The position numbers and the translations under genes were made by a program. A DNA stretch of 64,000 nucleotides from Corallococcus exercitus. GTDB taxonomy: Bacteria > Myxococcota > Myxococcia > Myxococcales > Myxococcaceae. Below the pieces are notes generated by a model. The model made no database searches. It saw nothing but the letters and a program-made list of their open reading frames with translations, and had not been told where the DNA came from. This document shows positions 1,528 to 9,989 of the stretch, piece by piece. Each line of letters starts with the position of its first letter. Position 1 is the stretch's first letter. Where the stretch lies: NCBI RefSeq assembly GCF_042231735.1, contig NZ_CP102577.1:3103281-3167280 (forward strand), read 5' to 3'.

Positions 1528-4500
1528 ATGCGTCGACTCACCCTGCTGACTGCCCTCTGCCTGTCTGTCCTTTCCGCCTGCTCTCCCGTGGAGCCTGAGG
1601 CACCGGATGAACCCGAGACGCCTGCGGATGCCTCGCAGACCCAGGCCCTGGAGTTGACCCAGGTCTTCAACACCCACGTGACGTGGACTGGCGCGACCAA
1701 GTGCAGCACCTGCCAGCGGCCTTCCTATGCCTGCTCGGACAACACGGGGAACTGGAACGGTGGGGTCCAGAGCTTCAGGGATCCCCTCCCTCCCGGCTGG
1801 GTGGCGATGGAAGTGCACGTGGGCATTGGCGCCCGCGGCTATGACGGTGGCATCTCCACGGTCCGGTTGAACAACCTGGTGCTGGGGTCCTTCGGGCTCC
1901 CCGACCTGAGCTGGTTCGGGTGTGGCGCCTGCACGCCGCAGCAGGTCCGCTACGCCACGACCGAGCAGACGGGGCTGCCCGGCTACCAATACGGCGCCAT
2001 CAATACCCTCACGCTGCGCACGGAAGAGACCAACTGCTTCGCCTTCGCCGACATCAGCATCAAGGCGGGGCGGCCCGTGCTCACGGTCAAGCCCACCGAG
2101 GTGTCGTTCGGCTCGGTGGCGGTGGGCGCGTCCGCCACGCAGAAGGTGACCTTGACGAACGAGGGCATCGCCCCGCTCGTCATCACCGCCATGAATGTCC
2201 CAAGTCCCTTCGGGCTGAACTCCATCACCCTGCCCTTCACGCTCAAGGCCCGCTCCAGCCTGGACGTGACCGTGACGTTCGCGCCGAAGGACGAGCGGGC
2301 CGCCTCTGGGAACCTGACCATCGTGAGCAGTGATCCCGACAAGCCGTCGCGGTTGATCAAGCTCGAGGGGACCGGCGGTGCCGCGAAACTCCAGCTCAGC
2401 CCGACCTCGCTCGACTTCGGTGCCGTGCGGGCTGGCACGAGCAAGAGCCTCCCCCTCCAGCTGAAGAACGTGGGGACCGTGCCGCTCACGCTCTCCGCCG
2501 TCCTGACCCAGGCCCCCTTCTCCGTCAGCGGCTTTGCCTCGGGGGACGTCGTGCTGCAGCCCTCGGGCGTCCTCCCGCTCACGGTGACCTTCACGGCGAC
2601 GGCCGGGGAAGCCAACCAGCCGCTGTACATCCAGTCCCAGGGGACCACCACCACGCCGATCGCGGAGGTCGCGCTGCACGGCACGGGCACCCAGCCCGCC
2701 ATCTCCGTGGCCGCGACCGCGATGGACTTCGGCGTGCACACCGCGGGCATCGAGCCGGTTCGCCAGACGCTGACGGTGGGCAACACGGGCCAGGATGATC
2801 TGATCCTCACCGCCTTCGACGTGGAGGCGCCCTTCACCGTGGAGGCCGGCCTGCCGCTGACCATCAAGCCCTGGGAACAGAAGGACCTGCCGGTGGCCTT
2901 CGCTCCCGGAGCGGGCCGCGCCACGAAGGACCTCACCCTGCGCAGCAACGACCCGAACCGTCCCGCGTTCAAGGTGTCCCTCTCCGGCACCGGCGTGAAG
3001 GTCCCCGCGCTCCAGGTCACCGGGCCGGATGGCGGCACGGCGCTGGATTTCGGCTCGCGGGAGGTCAGCTCCGTGAGCGCACCCCAGACCCTGACGCTCA
3101 AGAACGAGGGCGCGGGGACGCTCGTGGTGGAGTCCATCCAGGCACCCACCGGCTTCGCCGTGACGCCCGCGGGCCGGCTCAGCCTGACGCCCGGCGCCGC
3201 GACCCAGCTCCAGGTGACCTTCGAGCCCTCGCATACCGCCCAGTTCACGGAGGAGCTGACGGTGAGCGCGGATGGTCCTGGTGGCTCCACCCAGGTCGTG
3301 CCGCTCAGTGGGCAGGGCGTCGAGGGAAAGCTGACCGCCAATCCCTCCGCGCTGTCCTTCTCCCGGACGGAAGTGGGCAAGAGCAGCAAGGCGGTGCAGG
3401 TCACGCTCGTCAACACGGGGACGGAGGCGATCACCCTCAGCACCATCGCGGTGGCGGGACCGTTCTCGGCGGTGCTTCCGAAGCTGCCCAAGGAGCTCAC
3501 GCCGCGCGACGCCTTCACGATGGAGGTCACCTTCAGTCCGCTCGAGGACGGCCCCGCGTCCGGCGCGCTCCGGGTGTTCTCCAACGCGCCGTCGTCCCCC
3601 ACGGTGGTGAAGCTGGAGGGTGAGGGGCTCCAGGCCATCGCCCGGATGGCGAGCGACGTGATGGAGTTCGGCGGCCAGCGGGTGGGCGGCGTGAGCGCGC
3701 CACGGGAGCTCACGCTGTTCAACACGGGAAGCGAGTCGCTGGATGTGACGGCGGTGAACGTGAGCGGTCCGTTCCTGATCTCCGGACTCAACGTGGGCAC
3801 CAGCGTGCCGCCGCTCGGGAGCCGCACGTTCCAGGTCAGCTACAAGCCCACCGAGACCACGGCGGAGAACGGCGTGCTGGAGGTCCAGAGCAACGCGCCG
3901 CGCACCGCCCAGGTGACGCTGCGGGGAACGGGGACCATGGCTTCAATCGAGGCCTCCGTGACGACGCTGGCCTTCGGTTCCCAGTTCCTGGGCGCGGCCG
4001 AGCAGCGCGTCGTGGAGCTGCGCAACACCGGCACGAGCCCCATCACGCTCACGGGGTTGGATCCGGTGGACGGGTTCTCCGTGTCGGGATTGCCGCTGCC
4101 CCATCAGCTGGAGGCCGGCACCAGTCACGCGTTCTCCGTGGTGTTCGCGCCGCCGCGGCCGGGCGAGTACGCCGGGTCGCTCGCCGTGCGGCACGACGCG
4201 TCCGCCACCCCGCTGATGGTCGCGGTGCAGGGGACCGGCGTGGCGCAGGCGCTGACGGTGACGCCCGGAGCCATCGCCTTCGGCAACCAGCGGGTGAACG
4301 CCACCAGCCAGTCCCTGCCCCTGGAGCTCGTCAACACGGGCAACGTGCCCGTCACCGTGCAGGTGACCTCCTCCGACGCCGCCTTCCAGGTGGACACGCG
4401 CGCGGTGGCCGAGGCCATTCCGGCGGGAGGCCGGGCCTCGGTGTCGGTGACGTTCCACCCGACGCGCACGGGCACGGTGCGCGGAGAGGTCCGCGTGGTG

Positions 4501-4711: not shown

Positions 4712-4995
4712 AAACCTGTCCGACAGTCGGACAGGTTTCCGCGGCGGGAGCCCGTCAGGGCCGGGGGCCGCCGGGGGTGTCGAAACCGGTCCGATTGTCG
4801 GACAGGTTTCCGCGGCGGGAGCCCGTCAGGGCCGGGGGGCCGCCGGGGTTGCCACAACCTGTCCGACAGTCGGACAGGTTTCAGTGGCGGAAGTCCATCA
4901 GGGCCCGGAGCCCGCCGGGGTTGCCACAACCTGTCCGACAGTCGGACCGGTTCGTGCGACGGGCGGCCGGCGGCGAGCCCCGGCAGGGTTCTCAT
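4712..4995. repeat. Tandem array of 4 copies of a ~70-74 bp unit, each starting with the 19-bp perfect palindrome CTGTCCGACAGTCGGACAG (copy 2 degenerate: GGTCCGATTGTCGGACAG); intergenic between convergent genes
   Basis: The palindrome copies start at ~4716, 4786, 4860 and 4931. Units 1-3 are conserved along their whole length (GGTTTCCGCGGCGGGAGCCCGTCAGGGCCGGGGGCCGCCGGGG...). Unit 4 diverges after the palindrome. All six frames translate it as repeats (PVRQSDRF/PVRLSDRL), so it is non-coding. Confidence 0.85.
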
Positions 4996-5031: not shown

Positions 5032-6612
5032 TCAGGGAGGAGGCGGCGCGGGAATGGGACGAGCCGGAGCGGGCTCGCCCAGGATCAACAGCAGCTCCGC
5101 GCGGCGGTTCTCGCCCCGGCCCGCCTGTGTGCCATTGGAGCTCGCGGGCCGGCGTGCACCGAGGCCCCGGGCTTCCAGGCGGTGGGCCGGGACGCCCTTC
5201 CGCAAGAGGTAGTCGCGCACGGCTTCCGCGCGGGCCAGGGACAGGCGCTGGTTGGAGGCGGAAGAGCCCTCCGCGTCCGTGTGCCCTTCGATGACGACGC
5301 GCTCGACTTCCGGATGCTCCAGGAGCACCCGCGCCACCTGATCCAGCACGCGCGAGCGGCCCGGCAGCGTCGTCGCGCCGACCTCGAAGAAGACCTGGCC
5401 ATGGAGGACCAGGCGCTCGCGGGTCAGGGTGACGAGCGGGTCGCCGGACTCAGGGCAACCGCCGTACTCCCGCGTCCCCTTCTCATGGACGCAGGCATCC
5501 AGCGCGTCCACGACGCCGTCTCCGTCCGTGTCGGTCTCGATGCCTGACGAGTTCCCGGACGGCTCTGGCGTGGGCTCGGGAGGCGTGGGTTCAGGAGGCG
5601 TGGGCTCGGGCTCGAGCTGGGGTTCGGCGGGAGCACGTGGCAGCCCTTGGACGATCTCATAGACGATGTCCTCCGGGGGCGGAGGCGGTGCCTTGTCGAA
5701 GAGCAGGGCCAGTCCCGCAAGCACCCGGAAGCGAGGGGAACCCGGCTCCGAGCCAACCCCCGCCCCGCCCATGGCGAAGAATTCCCAGGGCCGAGCGGGT
5801 GCGTAGCGAAGGCCGCCGAGCAGCTCGCCGCTGGTGCGCTGCTGCCGCCAGGAGTACGCACCGTTCGCGGACACCTCCGCGCGGAAGGCGTAACCCACGG
5901 TGAGCCCCACACCGGCCCGCAGCTCGTTGCCCACGCCGTTGAGGCTGTCCACGCCGGAGTCCGTCGACACGGCGCGACGCAGGAGCACGCCCACTTCCAG
6001 CGCCGGAGCCACGGGCCCCCAGCGCTTGCCCATCATGATCCGTCCCTGCCCGCGGACACCCTGGTCACGAGCCAGCGCTCCCGAGCCGCCCACGGGCAAC
6101 CGCACGTCCAGGTCGAGCGCCAGGTGAAAGGCCTCGGGAGCGGAGGTCCCCAGCAATCCCAGCCGGGCCGCGAGTCGCGGTGCCCCCAACCCGCTGCGTG
6201 ACGGAGGGGAGATGGACAGCACGGTGCTCACATCCGCACCGCTCTGGTGGATGACGCCAGGAAGCTGGGCCTGAAGCTCCAGCCAGGGCAGCACACCGAC
6301 GGCCAGCGACACCAGTCCGGTGGTCCGGGACAGGACGAGCGGGTACTCGTCCGACCCGTTCAGGATGGTCAGGGGAGCCCGCTGGTAGTGCGCCATCAGC
6401 GAGACGCGCACCGCCCCGGGCGCCAGCAGCTCGCCGCTTCCGAGCGCCAACGGCCCCAGCCCCGGATTCGGATCCAGGCGCTCCAGGGAGAACGTCGGCA
6501 GGGGCGTGGCGTCCTGGGCGCGCGCGGGGGATACGAGCAGCATCAGTCCCAGCGCGGCCCCGCCACGGACGCATCGGTGCAAGGCCGGACCCATGCGCGC
6601 ATCATCCGTCAT
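5032..6612 (-). CDS. OmpA-family outer-membrane protein (N-terminal beta-barrel-like domain, Pro/Glu-rich linker, TSP3-like DxDxDG Ca-binding motif, C-terminal OmpA peptidoglycan-binding domain)
   Basis: The C-terminus ...HGQVFFEVGATTLPGRSRVLDQVARVL...VIEGHTDAEGSSASNQRLSLARAEAVRDYLL...NRRAEL is canonical OmpA_C. It has a DTDGDGVVDALDAC motif, an EPTPPEPTPPEPTP linker and a signal-peptide-like N-terminus (ALGLMLLVSPARAQD). The start is uncertain (6594/6612/6651). Confidence 0.85.
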   Translation of the reverse strand: MTDDARMGPALHRCVRGGAALGLMLLVSPARAQDATPLPTFSLERLDPNPGLGPLALGSGELLAPGAVRVSLMAHYQRAPLTILNGSDEYPLVLSRTTGLVSLAVGVLPWLELQAQLPGVIHQSGADVSTVLSISPPSRSGLGAPRLAARLGLLGTSAPEAFHLALDLDVRLPVGGSGALARDQGVRGQGRIMMGKRWGPVAPALEVGVLLRRAVSTDSGVDSLNGVGNELRAGVGLTVGYAFRAEVSANGAYSWRQQRTSGELLGGLRYAPARPWEFFAMGGAGVGSEPGSPRFRVLAGLALLFDKAPPPPPEDIVYEIVQGLPRAPAEPQLEPEPTPPEPTPPEPTPEPSGNSSGIETDTDGDGVVDALDACVHEKGTREYGGCPESGDPLVTLTRERLVLHGQVFFEVGATTLPGRSRVLDQVARVLLEHPEVERVVIEGHTDAEGSSASNQRLSLARAEAVRDYLLRKGVPAHRLEARGLGARRPASSNGTQAGRGENRRAELLLILGEPAPARPIPAPPPP

Positions 6613-6741
6613 GTTCCGCCCGGGGCGAAGGGGAATGGCGGCGCGCGGCATTCGTGCATCGTCACCGGAATGGATGCGACTCCGATTCCATTCCAGAATC
6701 CCAGACTAGACTGCGCCGGCAGCGCCCCCCACGGAAACACG

Positions 6742-6803
6742 CTCAGACAAGGGTAGCCACAAGGCATCCTGACACAAGGCAAGAAGGCCAAAAGGACAAG
6801 AAG
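6742..6803 (+). promoter_or_regulatory. Cluster of short direct repeats (G/C)ACAAGG x3 plus AAGAAGG/AAAAGGA variants in the divergent intergenic region at the left edge of the AT-rich island
   Basis: agaCAAGGgtagccaCAAGGcatcctgacaCAAGGcaAGAAGGccaAAAGGacAAGAAGc lies ~80-130 bp upstream of the island ORF at 6879. These are possible transcription-factor sites or a promoter. There is no functional evidence. Confidence 0.25.
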
Positions 6804-6878
6804 CAGAGTAGTCCGGCACGCATCCCTGATAACCTGCTGCCCATGCAAAACCTACAGGCACATTGGGACAAAAAATGA

Positions 6879-8021
6879 ATGAACAAGCACCTTAAGCTCG
6901 ACGTGCAAGTCGCTGAAGATGACCCAATTCGAAAATCATTGCTCAACCAACGGGTACAGCACTTAGAATCTGATGGTCTGAGTGTTCCCGAAGATGAGCT
7001 TCTTACATATTCCTTGTTCTACGAGTGGGACAACTCTCCAGGATGGCGGAGCTACGCCGATCTGAACAGGAAGCTTCCAGAGCGACGCACCCGGTTTGGG
7101 GACTTCCTAACAACAGACGCAGAAGAATCCTACCGACTTCGGCGCAAACCAGTATCGGACATCATTGAGTCGCTGGGCATTGGAGCAGCTCTCTCTGTCT
7201 CAGCTAGATTACTAGGGGTAACCGAGGCAGATTTCCTGAAAGTCCCAGACACCTCACTGGGAAGAACATTGGACTTCGAAAGAAGCTATGTCGCATCCGA
7301 TGGCGATCACTCCTACCGAGTAGAAGCCAAAGGAACGCACGATGGAAAGAGCGTCTCTTCAGCTCTCGACTCAATTAAAGCCAAGAAAATCTTTGACCGC
7401 AATTCAAAACAAGACGATGCTACCCTTGTTGGTGTTGTTTTCGATTTATCACTAGAGCGAAAACGCACATCCAAGGTAATTATCACTGACCCACCGGCAG
7501 AACCGATCCCCGAAAATCCAATTCTTATAAAACTATGGGCCCGACTTGGCTTTTACTCAGCGGCGCTGCGAACGATTTCCCGTGGCTCAATCACTGCAGG
7601 ATTTGCACAGCGACTCCCCGTCACAAGAGCACTTGGGGATCAGTGGCGGAAGGTTGATGGAATACCTCTCGTCAACCCAAGCGGCTATCCACTTGCTGTC
7701 TCATGGAACAAAAGCGGCATAGTTACACTTGCTTCACGGGAGCGGATTTTTGGACGATTCTTTGGCCCTGCATCAAAATCAACACGCAGGCAAACATCCT
7801 CTGAAGATGTGTCCATCTTCATCGGCTTGACTGAAAACACAATAGAACTGCTCACCAAACAGCGCCTCGAAGAAATAATATACCACAAAGAACGAGAAAG
7901 AGTTGCGGAAGCGAGCTACCCAGCCTATTCGCCATTTGAGGCTCGACCGCCATTTCGCTTTCAACATCTGCGCGTTTTTTCTTCGGGTGTTGTTGTGGGA
8001 TACCTTATCGGCAACGTTTGA
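6879..8021 (+). CDS. Hypothetical protein (380 aa) encoded on AT-rich island; no confidently recognisable domain
   Basis: The 1143-nt ORF sits in a region visibly poorer in GC than the flanks (roughly 45-50% by eye against ~70%). Codon use is atypical for the host (many A/T-ending codons). Weak motifs only: LDFERSYVASDGDHSYRVEAKG (D-x17-ExK, PD-(D/E)xK-like) and IIESLGIGAAL ... ITDPPAEP (loosely SAM-MTase motif I/IV-like but lacking the aromatic residue). The start has no obvious RBS. Confidence 0.55.
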   Translation: MNKHLKLDVQVAEDDPIRKSLLNQRVQHLESDGLSVPEDELLTYSLFYEWDNSPGWRSYADLNRKLPERRTRFGDFLTTDAEESYRLRRKPVSDIIESLGIGAALSVSARLLGVTEADFLKVPDTSLGRTLDFERSYVASDGDHSYRVEAKGTHDGKSVSSALDSIKAKKIFDRNSKQDDATLVGVVFDLSLERKRTSKVIITDPPAEPIPENPILIKLWARLGFYSAALRTISRGSITAGFAQRLPVTRALGDQWRKVDGIPLVNPSGYPLAVSWNKSGIVTLASRERIFGRFFGPASKSTRRQTSSEDVSIFIGLTENTIELLTKQRLEEIIYHKERERVAEASYPAYSPFEARPPFRFQHLRVFSSGVVVGYLIGNV

Positions 8022-8037
8022 GGCAATTGGGCCACCT

Positions 8038-8163
8038 CTCTATAGTCGCAGATTGACGCGGATTCCACGGGAGTGGCATCGGCAGCGCATGGCAACCGCT
8101 CGCTGATTGCGTTGGTAGAGGGGCACACTGAGGTCAAGTCCAACCCCGCTCCGATCTATAGTT
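8038..8163 (+). promoter_or_regulatory. Two copies of the palindromic hexamer CTATAG in similar context (cTCTATAGTcgcag / aTCTATAGTtcacg), 117 bp apart, in the 222-bp gap between the two island genes
   Basis: CTATAG is A/T-rich and self-complementary, so it is unexpected in this GC-rich genome. The pair lies upstream of the GTG start of the second island gene. It is a possible operator. Confidence 0.25.
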
Positions 8164-8242
8164 CACGAACGCGAACGCGCAGGCTGCGCGCGAGTAGAGT
8201 GCACAGGTCCAGTGCCGCAGTTCACGGGGGGAGGAGTCTAAA

Positions 8243-8770
8243 GTGCCTGAATTCTACGTTGAGGGGCCGTTCATTGTGCCGTGCATTGCAAAGGGGCATG
8301 GGAAAGTCGTCGACACGAAACGCTTGAAGGAGTTCTGGGAAGACCTCGGCGAGGGCAGGTCGTCCAGTTACGGCTGTTACGTTTTCGGGATGCAAGTCGG
8401 ACGAGGCCTCGTGCCAATCTATGTCGGCAAGGCCACCAAGAGTTTCAAGCAAGAGTGCTTCACGCTCGACAAGTTGTTCAAGACCAACGCATCGCTGCTT
8501 CACTGGAAGCGAGGCACCCCTGTTCTCTTTCTTGTGCCTTTGGAACGCAAGAGAGGCCGGGTTAACGCAGCCTTGATCGCTACTGCCGAGGAATTCCTCA
8601 TTCAGAACGCCGTCGTCCGTAATCCTAACCTTGCGAATGTTCGTGGCACCGAGCAGGAATCATGGGGAATTGCCGGTGTTCTTCGTGGTGGAAAAGGAAA
8701 GCCATCCGCAAGCGCGCGGGACTTCAAACGGATGATGGGGCTGAGACAGCGTTCCTCCCAGCCAGGATGA
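8243..8770 (+). CDS. Small GIY-YIG-like nuclease-domain protein (175 aa), second gene of AT-rich island
   Basis: It has a GTG start with a GGAGGAG RBS at 8228-8234. SYGCYVFGMQVGRGLVPIYVGKATKSF parallels the UvrC/I-TevI GIY-(x10-13)-YIG motif (cf. UvrC [21 protein letters not shown]). Downstream, ATAEEFLIQNAVVRNPNLAN fits the conserved Glu ... Asn of the fold. The canonical Arg after YIG is not obvious. Confidence 0.5.
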   Translation: MPEFYVEGPFIVPCIAKGHGKVVDTKRLKEFWEDLGEGRSSSYGCYVFGMQVGRGLVPIYVGKATKSFKQECFTLDKLFKTNASLLHWKRGTPVLFLVPLERKRGRVNAALIATAEEFLIQNAVVRNPNLANVRGTEQESWGIAGVLRGGKGKPSASARDFKRMMGLRQRSSQPG

Positions 8771-9096
8771 CTCCAGGATTGCAAAGTGACGACGTCGGTG
8801 GGGCTAGTGGGGTCCTCGATGCTGTTTCTCGCCTGCTGATCTGATGCGACGCGGGACACACCGCCGGAGCCGCAGGCCACGAAGGCAGACAGCCCCGTGC
8901 ACATCCTGGCGCCGCATAACAACTGTGACGAAACGTGGATGCTGGTTGTTGCCGCGTCTACAGCGACCGCGTGCCCTGCAACAATGGCATTGAGATGTAT
9001 GCCATCTGGACGCCGGGCGGCTGGTGCAGCCCGCGCGACGTCGCCAAAAGCAGCGAGGGCCCTGAGCTGGTCTGCCCGCAGTGACGCATCACGGAC

Positions 9097-9124
9097 CTCC
9101 CTGCCCTCAGCACGGGCAGGGAGG
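9097..9124 (-). terminator. GC-rich hairpin (11-bp stem CCTCCCTGCCC/GGGCAGGGAGG, 6-nt loop) 14 nt downstream of the folD stop
   Basis: The inverted repeat was read directly. No U-tract follows on the minus strand, so intrinsic-terminator function is uncertain. Confidence 0.35.
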
Positions 9125-9137
9125 CCCAACAATCACA

Positions 9138-9989
9138 TCACATCACGCCGCGCTGTGCCGCCTCCAGCGTGTTCTTCATCAGCATCGCAATGGTCATCGG
9201 CCCCACGCCGCCAGGGACCGGCGTGATGAATGACGCGCGCTCCGCCGCCGCGGCGAACTCCACGTCTCCCACCAGCTTGCCATCCGCCTTGCGGTTCATG
9301 CCCACGTCAATCACCACCGCGCCGGGCTTGATCCACGCGCCCTTCACCAGCTCCGGCACGCCCACCGCCACCACCAGGATGTCCGCCTGGGCCACCTCCG
9401 CCGGCAGGTCGCTCTTGCGGTGGCACACCGTCACCGTCGCGTCCTTCTGCAGCAGCATCAGCGCCTGGGGCTTGCCCACGATGTTGCTTCGCCCCACCAC
9501 CACCGCGCGCTTGCCCGCCGGATTGCACCCGACCTCTTCCAAGAGCCGCATCACGCCGTAGGGCGTGCACGCCCGCGTCGCCGGCCGGCCCAGCAGCAGG
9601 TTTCCCGCGTTCATCGGGTGGAAGCCGTCCGCGTCCTTCTCCGGCTTCACCGCGGAGATGATGGCGTCCGCGTCCAGGTGCTTGGGCAACGGCAGCTGCA
9701 CCAGGATGCCGTGCACCGCCGGGTCCTCGTTCAGCCGGTGCACCAGCGCCAGGAGCTCCTCCTGGGTGATGTTCTCATCCGGGTGGTGCTCCCAGGAGTT
9801 GAAGCCCACCTCCTCGGCGGCCTTCTTCTTCCCCGTCACGTAAATCTTGGAAGCCGGGTCCTCACCCACGCGCACCACGGCGAGTCCCGGGGTGATGCCG
9901 CGCTCCGCCTTCAGGCGCGCCACCTCCTCCTTGATCTCCGCCCGCACGCGCGCCGCCACTGCCTTGCCGTCGATCAACTGAGCCGTCAT
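9138..9989 (-). CDS. folD: Bifunctional 5,10-methylene-THF dehydrogenase / methenyl-THF cyclohydrolase
   Basis: [27 protein letters not shown]...[21 protein letters not shown]...[23 protein letters not shown] is canonical FolD over 284 aa. The ORF-track N-terminal extension to 10418 lacks homology. Confidence 0.92.

Follow-up and report, generated by a model that had tools for sequence, protein, structure and literature searches.

Defence genes nested in type I restriction-modification (R-M) operons have been documented for TgvAB (PMC11411939), and Payne et al. used such nesting as a predictor, which they termed 'guilt-by-embedding' and whose PDC candidates are already included in PADLOC (bioRxiv 10.1101/2024.01.29.577857). 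Single-gene restriction enzymes are also known, such as CMoRE/PD-T4-3, a GIY-YIG enzyme of about 248 amino acids (aa) that has a C-terminal modified-base sensing domain and keeps the catalytic Arg and Glu as well as the GIYxY-YIG motif. Here, we analysed a stretch of 64,000 nucleotides from Corallococcus exercitus (contig NZ_CP102577.1, positions 3,103,281 to 3,167,280; hereafter the window, in whose own numbering the coordinates are given), which carries an insert of about 2.46 kb between a gene encoding an OmpA-family outer-membrane protein and folD. Two open reading frames (ORFs), ORF1 (WP_375760161.1) and ORF2 (WP_375760162.1), are present in this insert, both of them deposited as 'hypothetical protein' in C. 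exercitus. On balance, we lean towards reading them as two stacked, solitary single-gene nuclease cassettes in a core-flanked hotspot and not as one system, and the cassettes are probably defence-related or selfish.

The guanine-plus-cytosine (GC) content falls from 0.70-0.76 in the flanks to 0.445-0.555 over 6700-8000 in 200-bp windows, followed by a shallower shoulder of 0.54-0.59 up to about 8800, and about 0.70 is regained by 9200. The minima are 0.476 in 500-bp windows and 0.490 in 1-kb windows, compared with 0.704 ± 0.029 and 0.704 ± 0.023 in the rest of the window (z = -7.9 and -9.3, respectively), and the trough is the sole run below the mean minus three standard deviations in the whole 64-kb window. 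A preliminary description of this DNA had reported a sharp drop in base composition against a background of about 70% GC, which is confirmed by the windowed values (45-58% over about 6.65-8.8 kb, the only such trough in the window). The extent that it gave, about 6.76-8.1 kb, is right for the deep part but not for the right end, since the shallower low GC reaches about 8.8 kb and matches ORF2. The shift in codon usage that it described was also recovered, with GC at third codon positions (GC3) of 0.454 in ORF1 and 0.642 in ORF2 compared with 0.843 in the OmpA-family gene and 0.930 in folD, and the ORF list agrees with its count of exactly two long same-strand genes in the insert, namely ORF1 at 6879-8021 (+ strand, 380 aa) and ORF2 at 8243-8770 (+ strand, 175 aa).

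Orthologous loci were collected with the OmpA-family protein as the query and then compared by BLASTN. The OmpA-family gene (5032-6651, - strand), which encodes 539 aa with a C-terminal OmpA-like domain, is 84-93% identical in five other Corallococcus genomes, and folD (9138-9989, - strand, 283 aa) shows 93-95% nucleotide identity in other Corallococcus genomes. These two genes are directly adjacent in Corallococcus sp. RDP092CA and C. coralloides KYC2213, which hold the empty site with gaps of only 55 and 264 bp, respectively. Compared with these empty-site genomes, the insert is unique over about 6651-9113: homology ends at 6641-6650, at the start codon of the OmpA-family gene, and returns at 9114-9149, where the folD hairpin and stop codon lie. 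This terminator-like hairpin (9093-9127, - strand), an inverted repeat with 14-bp arms, lies directly 3' of the folD stop codon, and the C. coralloides homology resumes at 9114, inside its 3' arm.

Inserts without homology to that of the window occupy the same site in C. interemptor (2865 bp), C. exercitus AB043A (2156 bp), and C. aberystwythensis (4336 bp), with GC of 0.58-0.64 compared with 0.69-0.70 in their hosts. Since different low-GC cargo is present in other Corallococcus, including a second C. exercitus strain, the site is regarded as a variable-cargo hotspot. The recent horizontal acquisition proposed in the preliminary description is thus upheld by the two empty sites and by the differing cargo of other strains. 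An island as such is ordinary for a myxobacterial chromosome. It is very likely that this insert is strain-specific, was horizontally acquired, and sits in a core-flanked intergenic hotspot.

The two genes were originally taken for a paired system, which is contradicted by the distribution of their families. In profile searches of six-frame translations of the fetched loci, an ORF1-family gene was found in none of nine distinct ORF2-family loci (each reaching at least 2 kb upstream) and an ORF2-family gene in none of ten ORF1-family loci (each reaching at least 0.88 kb downstream, one of them judged by its gene table only), so that the two families co-occur in 0 of 19 informative loci outside the window. 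Elsewhere, ORF2 occurs as a single-gene unit. Nucleotide homology between the window and a metagenome contig carrying its relative P0002 (L001) is limited to 8173-8739, that is, to ORF2 and a 70-nt leader, in an otherwise unrelated neighbourhood, and the shared unit is about 570 bp. The conserved 5' leader of this unit (8173-8242, + strand), at the first position of which the homology to L001 begins, includes a Shine-Dalgarno sequence of ORF2's own (GGAGGAG, 8230-8236) placed 6 nt ahead of the GTG start.

The two genes also differ in GC, which is 0.49 in ORF1 and 0.56 in ORF2. A sigma-70-like consensus match in the spacer between them (TTGAGG-17-TATAGT, 8018-8046, + strand) is weak evidence for separate transcription of ORF2, as one site was found where 1.0 is expected by chance. 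In every locus examined (L001-L004 and L085-L108), the ORF1- or ORF2-family gene lies 6-21 GC points under its local surroundings, in hosts that range from about 44% to about 69% GC, suggesting that both families behave as mobile single-gene cassettes. We consider it likely that ORF1 and ORF2 are independent of each other.

No match to ORF1 was found in the Pfam, NCBIfam, PADLOC, and PHROG profile libraries. A word-indexed search retrieved ORF1 itself alone, and the family profile also performed poorly there, whereas exhaustive phmmer retrieved 289 cluster representatives at E ≤ 1e-3 and 158 at E ≤ 1e-10 (clusters counted at 50% identity). ORF1 is therefore no orphan, and its orphan look is an artefact of the word-indexed search. 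These relatives are mostly 385-415 aa in length, and the best is 42% identical. In a family alignment of 42 sequences with about 30% mean identity, G100, D132, E149, K169, K170, G185, D204, and P205 are invariant, while E97, K151, and G152 are conserved in at least 90%; a KK169-170 pair and a DPP204-206 motif are conserved extras of the family.

The AlphaFold model built on this alignment is confident, with a predicted local distance difference test (pLDDT) score of 86.2 and a predicted template modelling (pTM) score of 0.86. It places E97 on a long helix (93-112, helix α1), D132 just ahead of strand 136-140 in a low-confidence loop, and E149-x-K151 on strand 145-154, with helix 159-176 and additional strands coming next. 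This nuclease core is predicted to be flanked by two additional domains, one N-terminal (about 1-90) and one C-terminal (about 214-380). In the model, ORF1 thus appears to possess the signature of PD-(D/E)xK nucleases, namely D...(D/E)xK on strands β2/β3 together with an acidic residue on helix α1. Fold matches to PD-(D/E)xK nucleases, which have an α-β-β-β-α-β core, recur but are weak. Foldseek gave no significant match of the model in the PDB, the family profile matched no PDB sequence, and the 42 relatives gave nothing significant against Pfam and PADLOC, with single hits at E of about 0.01 in PADLOC only. The D...ExK that had been pointed out in the large protein gains weight from D132, E149, and K151, which are invariant or nearly so, and from the weak fold matches, and ORF1 is, with fair confidence, a predicted PD-(D/E)xK nuclease that belongs to no curated family.

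DNA methyltransferases that depend on S-adenosylmethionine (SAM) are marked by a Rossmann fold, motif I (FxGxG), and motif IV ((D/N)PP(Y/F/W)). A hint of such an enzyme had also been seen in ORF1 and was rejected, as ExxGxG (97-102) is located inside the long helix α1, while the DPP of DPPA is without the aromatic residue and comes after a β-strand of the nuclease core. No Rossmann methyltransferase is present among the ORF1 fold matches.

Relatives of ORF1 are found within type I R-M operons. On a metagenome contig (SRR32661671_21365, L106, 189-6643), the ORF1-family gene X stands in the order hsdR-X-hsdM-hsdS with gaps of 18 and 9 nt, and its GC is 0.34 compared with 0.48-0.55 in its neighbours; the hsdR gene of this operon is split, being called as two ORFs (264 and 509 aa), and may be frameshifted. 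In L098, the order X-hsdM-hsdS is followed by an insertion sequence (IS) element and an HNH_2 gene. The 'guilt-by-embedding' pattern is therefore seen in ORF1 homologs (L106 and L098), although not in the window's copy, and by context the nesting of these homologs predicts a defence function. A defence role for ORF1 itself is a tentative assignment, which we place just short of evenly balanced.

Other members of the family occupy various contexts. In L099 (3-1717) and L100 (2-1995), an HNH_2 endonuclease gene overlaps the start of the ORF1-family gene by 4 bp. This HNH_2 gene matches PADLOC HNH/restriction endonuclease (REase) models and bears an uncharacterised N-terminal domain; the overlap suggests a coupled HNH and PD-(D/E)xK pair in this ORF1 subfamily. 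RepB/ParB genes lie downstream, and the contig may therefore be a plasmid. The ORF1-family gene is followed by a DUF3644 protein corresponding to the PADLOC candidate PDC-S19 (E 2e-149) in L103 and by an ankyrin-repeat protein and a SIR2_2 protein on an ENA contig, comes after an excisionase-like gene and an integrase in L096, and is solitary in L085 and L105. In L104 (2-295), the preceding gene ends exactly at the start of the ORF1-family gene. Its C-terminal tail (…AYGWSDLDLGHGF…RLLKLNHERYAEEV…), which we take to resemble the C-termini of type IIG/BREX-type DNA methyltransferases, belongs to a 97-aa fragment without a Pfam match. ORF1 relatives were found neither in 72,556 plasmids by tblastn with five ORF1-family queries nor in IMG/VR by a pattern scan; a locus scan with a narrower ORF1 alignment returned only three short metagenome loci.

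At E ≤ 1e-3, ORF2 has 171 homologs with a typical length of about 167 aa, among which there is no Pfam domain or informative name, and ORF2 itself had no match in Pfam, NCBIfam, PADLOC, or PHROG. The invariants in an alignment of 45 family members include G44, Y46, F48, Y60, V61, G62, A64, E71, E116, L119, I120, N127, and N132. Two tyrosine motifs, G44-C-Y46 and Y60-V-G-K-A64, are present with an inter-Tyr spacing of 13, a little above the customary 10-11 or so, and the predicted α/β fold, a three-stranded antiparallel sheet flanked by helices, corresponds to the GIY-YIG fold. Its fold matches include the UvrC N-terminal domain (1ycz), I-TevI (1ln0), Eco29kI, and Hpy188I. Alignment of the ORF2 family to GIY-YIG references by hhalign gave a probability of 72%, with GCY46...PIY60VGKA placed over GVY...PIYIGKA of UvrC; the references were I-TevI, the sequence of which agrees with the PDB save for deposited point mutants, and UvrC of B. 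caldotenax and T. maritima from the PDB.

In the hhalign register, the catalytic-Arg column of the references (I-TevI R27 and UvrC R39) falls on the invariant E71 of ORF2, beside Q70, and family members have K, R, or G at position 69. The canonical GIY-YIG active site also has a metal-binding Glu and a downstream Asn (I-TevI E75/N90). None of the 45 family members matched the Pfam GIY-YIG model even at E ≤ 10, their search against PADLOC gave nothing beyond single insignificant hits (E of about 0.01), and the family profile matched no PDB sequence. The GIY-YIG-like motif announced for the small protein is thus retained for its tyrosine motifs and fold, but not for the catalytic Arg or a Pfam GIY-YIG match. 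ORF2 is predicted to be a GIY-YIG-fold protein with an atypical active site, for which nuclease activity is plausible but not assured. The view that neither protein could be placed has consequently to be revised, as their predicted folds, weakly in the case of ORF1, allow both to be assigned to a nuclease superfamily, but neither belongs to a curated family.

Judged from a dN/dS of 0.06 (pS 0.42, pN 0.036) against its 92%-identical relative P0002, ORF2 is under strong purifying selection and clearly functional, although selection is silent on which function this is. Its C-terminus has an 8-aa extension (LRQRSSQPG) that is not found in homologs, and the homology of the ORF2 unit to L001 stops 31 nt before the window's stop codon (8740-8770 lies outside); therefore, a recombination junction seems to lie within the last ORF2 codons. 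One ORF2 relative adjoins an IS200-type transposase gene and another is located in an IS-rich stretch of a Ralstonia megaplasmid, while seven IMG/VR contigs carry further relatives. A tblastn search with ORF2 against plasmids gave only 4 records, and no match was found in phage genomes. A defence role for ORF2 appears doubtful.

The other parts of the insert are short. The left junction and leader (6652-6878, no strand assigned; GC 0.55) is without homology to the empty-site genomes, a repeat, or an att-like sequence. The right-hand segment (8771-9113, no strand assigned; GC about 0.64) has no convincing gene, and a minus-strand ORF at 8602-9132 was rejected as a gene, its similarities being only patchy and frame-shifting. 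Within this segment, 8897-9082 shows 79% nucleotide similarity to the same-site sequence of C. carmarthensis, and by tblastx the segment weakly resembles two parts of the C. aberystwythensis insert, in patches and with shifts of frame. It probably represents what is left of older, decayed cargo. No tRNA was found in the 64-kb window, no flanking direct repeats or att-like sequences beyond chance 8-mers at the insert borders, and no integrase-like or transposase ORF in the insert by the ORF list and profile scans. An Rfam scan of the island gave no match, and a promoter/terminator scan of the island gave counts at chance level.

In other Corallococcus strains, the cargo of the hotspot includes an eCIS_core (DUF4157) protein, a trypsin-like protease, and unknown proteins. 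The eCIS_core/DUF4157 protein is encoded in L005 (1396-4260), which has a 457-469-aa protein in common with L007 (1378-3533); the 469-aa protein of C. interemptor and the 457-aa protein of C. exercitus AB043A show 84% mutual identity. A secreted trypsin-like protease is encoded in C. aberystwythensis (L010, 1681-6016), and L006 (1-2045) encodes a 272-aa protein in which an H/D/S pattern like that of Ser proteases was noticed by eye. No known defence system was detected in any hotspot allele. In L010, a 277-aa protein bears a CxxC...EHIWPR motif, which looks HNH-like by eye. A 288-bp internal folD fragment (3279-3566), 95% identical to 9659-9944 of the window, is duplicated within the 4.3-kb insert of L010 and may be a scar left when recombination took place via the folD flank. 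Outside the insert, a 72-bp tandem repeat (4713-4952; 3.4 copies, 87% matches) separates a gene for a 1072-aa surface protein from the 3' end of the OmpA-family gene. Each of its units holds a palindrome (AACCTGTCCGAC..TCGGACAGGTT), and the repeat may be an element like a repetitive extragenic palindrome or a miniature inverted-repeat transposable element (REP/MITE-like).

We propose that the insert was installed or exchanged by homologous recombination through its conserved flanks, and that its cargo would be two independent single-gene cassettes arranged head-to-tail. ORF1 would be a metal-dependent DNA endonuclease with E97, D132, E149, and K151 as its active site, while its N- and C-terminal domains might serve target recognition or regulation. 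Since no methyltransferase accompanies either gene, the host, if DNA is cut, would be spared by foreign-target specificity or by activation during infection only. ORF1 might be limited to foreign DNA by its accessory domains, in a type IV restriction-like manner, or be switched on by infection, and its foreign target could be modified bases or infection-specific structures, as in type IV restriction. Because the ORF1 family occurs in or beside type I R-M operons and near defence candidates, an anti-phage/anti-plasmid role is the likeliest for ORF1. ORF2, whose role is less certain than that of ORF1, may encode another stand-alone nuclease of broadly this kind, or it may be a selfish gene of the homing type.

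Several observations weigh against this interpretation. ORF1 and ORF2 are on the same strand and only 221 bp apart, and co-transcription here is still compatible with the data. No experiment or curated model ties either family to defence, with PADLOC, Pfam, NCBIfam, and PHROGs all negative, and the suspicion of a defence module was not borne out by the comparison with PADLOC-DB v2.0.0, which covers known and candidate anti-phage systems and in which neither ORF1 nor ORF2 matches a model. The window itself is without a neighbouring known defence gene, and the cargo of other strains at the hotspot is not obviously defensive. Moreover, ORF2 lacks both the canonical catalytic Arg and a match to a GIY-YIG sequence model and, therefore, may not be a nuclease. 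The context sample is also small (about 14 ORF1-family and 10 ORF2-family loci), and many of its contigs are short.

Among the alternatives, ORF1 and ORF2 might be one cooperating restriction/defence system acquired as a unit, e.g., a sensor/nuclease with a second nuclease effector. Such a system would fit two adjacent same-strand genes separated by 221 bp on one foreign insert and the nuclease folds predicted in both proteins, and the translational coupling of one ORF1 subfamily to HNH_2 by a 4-bp overlap indicates that ORF1-type proteins can work beside a second nuclease. However, it is already largely refuted by the 19 informative loci, none of which holds both families, and is very unlikely: most members of each family are solitary, ORF2 with its 70-nt leader is all that is shared with an unrelated contig, the two genes are unlike in GC and GC3, and ORF2 is preceded by a Shine-Dalgarno sequence of its own as well as by a promoter-like site, the latter a chance-level match. 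A classical type II R-M cassette, in which ORF1 would be the methyltransferase or a fused R-M enzyme and ORF2 the endonuclease, is suggested by the superficial likeness of ExxGxG (97-102) and DPPA (204-207) to methyltransferase motifs I and IV, and some GIY-YIG enzymes are indeed type II REases, Eco29kI and Hpy188I being among the ORF2 fold matches. The probability of this cassette is nevertheless close to nil, as the insert has two substantial ORFs only and neither matches a cognate methyltransferase by sequence or fold. Thus, what survives of the restriction or defence cassette first envisaged is its defence-like flavour, carried by ORF1 homologs located in type I R-M operons or adjacent to PADLOC candidate genes, and not R-M, for which no methyltransferase is present.

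One or both genes might instead be selfish, free-standing homing-endonuclease-like genes, which cut empty sites and are copied in during repair. Members of both families are invariably compact, lower-GC genes that stand alone between unrelated conserved genes, without integrase or repeats, and the homology of the ORF2 unit is limited to the gene and a short leader. GIY-YIG and PD-(D/E)xK are both known homing-endonuclease folds, ORF2 matches I-TevI, and relatives of ORF2 are found next to IS elements as well as on a few IMG/VR contigs. However, homing predicts a conserved target site, while the insertion sites differ at every locus examined; ORF2 lacks the catalytic Arg and is too small to accommodate the DNA-binding domain usual in GIY-YIG homing enzymes, and the pattern scan of IMG/VR found no ORF1 family in viral contigs. 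As other strains have proteases and toxin-like cargo at the same hotspot, the insertion is explained by general recombination, and we judge homing unlikely. About as unlikely is that the two genes are ordinary non-defence cargo (DNA repair/recombination or RNA processing) or encode catalytically dead nuclease-fold proteins, placed in a variable region by chance. Strain-specific presence and low GC speak against a core role, the catalytic tetrad of ORF1 is kept across a family of about 30% mean identity, and defence genes typically show such embedding in type I R-M operons and such coupling to HNH; the strong purifying selection on ORF2 indicates a functional gene but does not tell the function itself.

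Two solitary cassettes, then, remain our preferred explanation. In its furthest form, the ORF1 family would represent new, uncatalogued single-gene anti-phage/anti-plasmid nucleases with a PD-(D/E)xK core and two novel accessory domains, at times embedded in type I R-M operons or coupled to HNH nucleases, which would leave self DNA intact in the absence of a methyltransferase, e.g., through recognition of modified or otherwise foreign DNA. ORF2 would stand for a new GIY-YIG branch of its own, with Glu in place of the catalytic Arg and hence altered chemistry or a non-nuclease role; we regard this as possible, though rather less than probable. No curated resource names the ORF1 family at present. 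If it is a working defence nuclease, a widespread family of about 290 clusters at 50% identity would be added to the prokaryotic immune repertoire, and it would be one more case in which type I R-M operons have defence genes nested in them. The ORF2 family offers a natural experiment on the GIY-YIG active site, as the fold and four of the five signature elements appear to be kept, while an invariant Glu stands in for the essential Arg. The site between the OmpA-family gene and folD is a clean, tiny core-flanked hotspot that has no fewer than five different cargo alleles besides an empty one, and is useful for the study of cargo exchange without integrases. For annotation, it shows that neighbouring foreign genes on one island need not be one system.

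Compared with known systems, the insert differs from integrase-type genomic islands and prophage remnants in having no integrase, transposase, border tRNA, or att repeats, and from R-M systems of types I-III in having no methyltransferase. Like core-gene-flanked hotspots and defence islands, it occupies one intergenic site with low-GC cargo that varies by strain and an empty allele; however, this hotspot is very small (0-4.3 kb), and unlike in defence islands, its cargo in other strains includes a toxin-like eCIS_core protein and proteases, with no recognised defence genes. ORF2 would work most like the single-gene GIY-YIG restriction enzyme CMoRE/PD-T4-3, by analogy, but its family has 167-175 aa, no reader domain, Glu at the Arg position, and no PADLOC match. 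It also differs from UvrC (1ycz) and I-TevI (1ln0) in lacking the C-terminal domains of the former and the DNA-binding domain of the latter, in the replaced catalytic Arg, and in its Tyr-Tyr spacing of 13 compared with 9-11. Type IV restriction enzymes combine a nuclease with a modified-base reader and cut modified DNA only; ORF1 has accessory domains, whereas ORF2 has none. In the model, ORF1 resembles the PD-(D/E)xK nucleases compared, namely the LHK-Exo/λ-exonuclease type (3syy), CinB (7esz), Hjc (1gef), and Cas4 (4ic1), in the E...D...ExK constellation on the corresponding helix and strands and, as far as the weak fold matches indicate, may share their core topology. The window's own ORF1 is not inside any defence system, and its family has no sequence relation to any PADLOC model, including the PDC set. 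Nevertheless, within type I R-M operons, the ORF1 homologs of L106 and L098 are located at positions equivalent to those taken by PrrC, TgvAB, and the PDC candidates.

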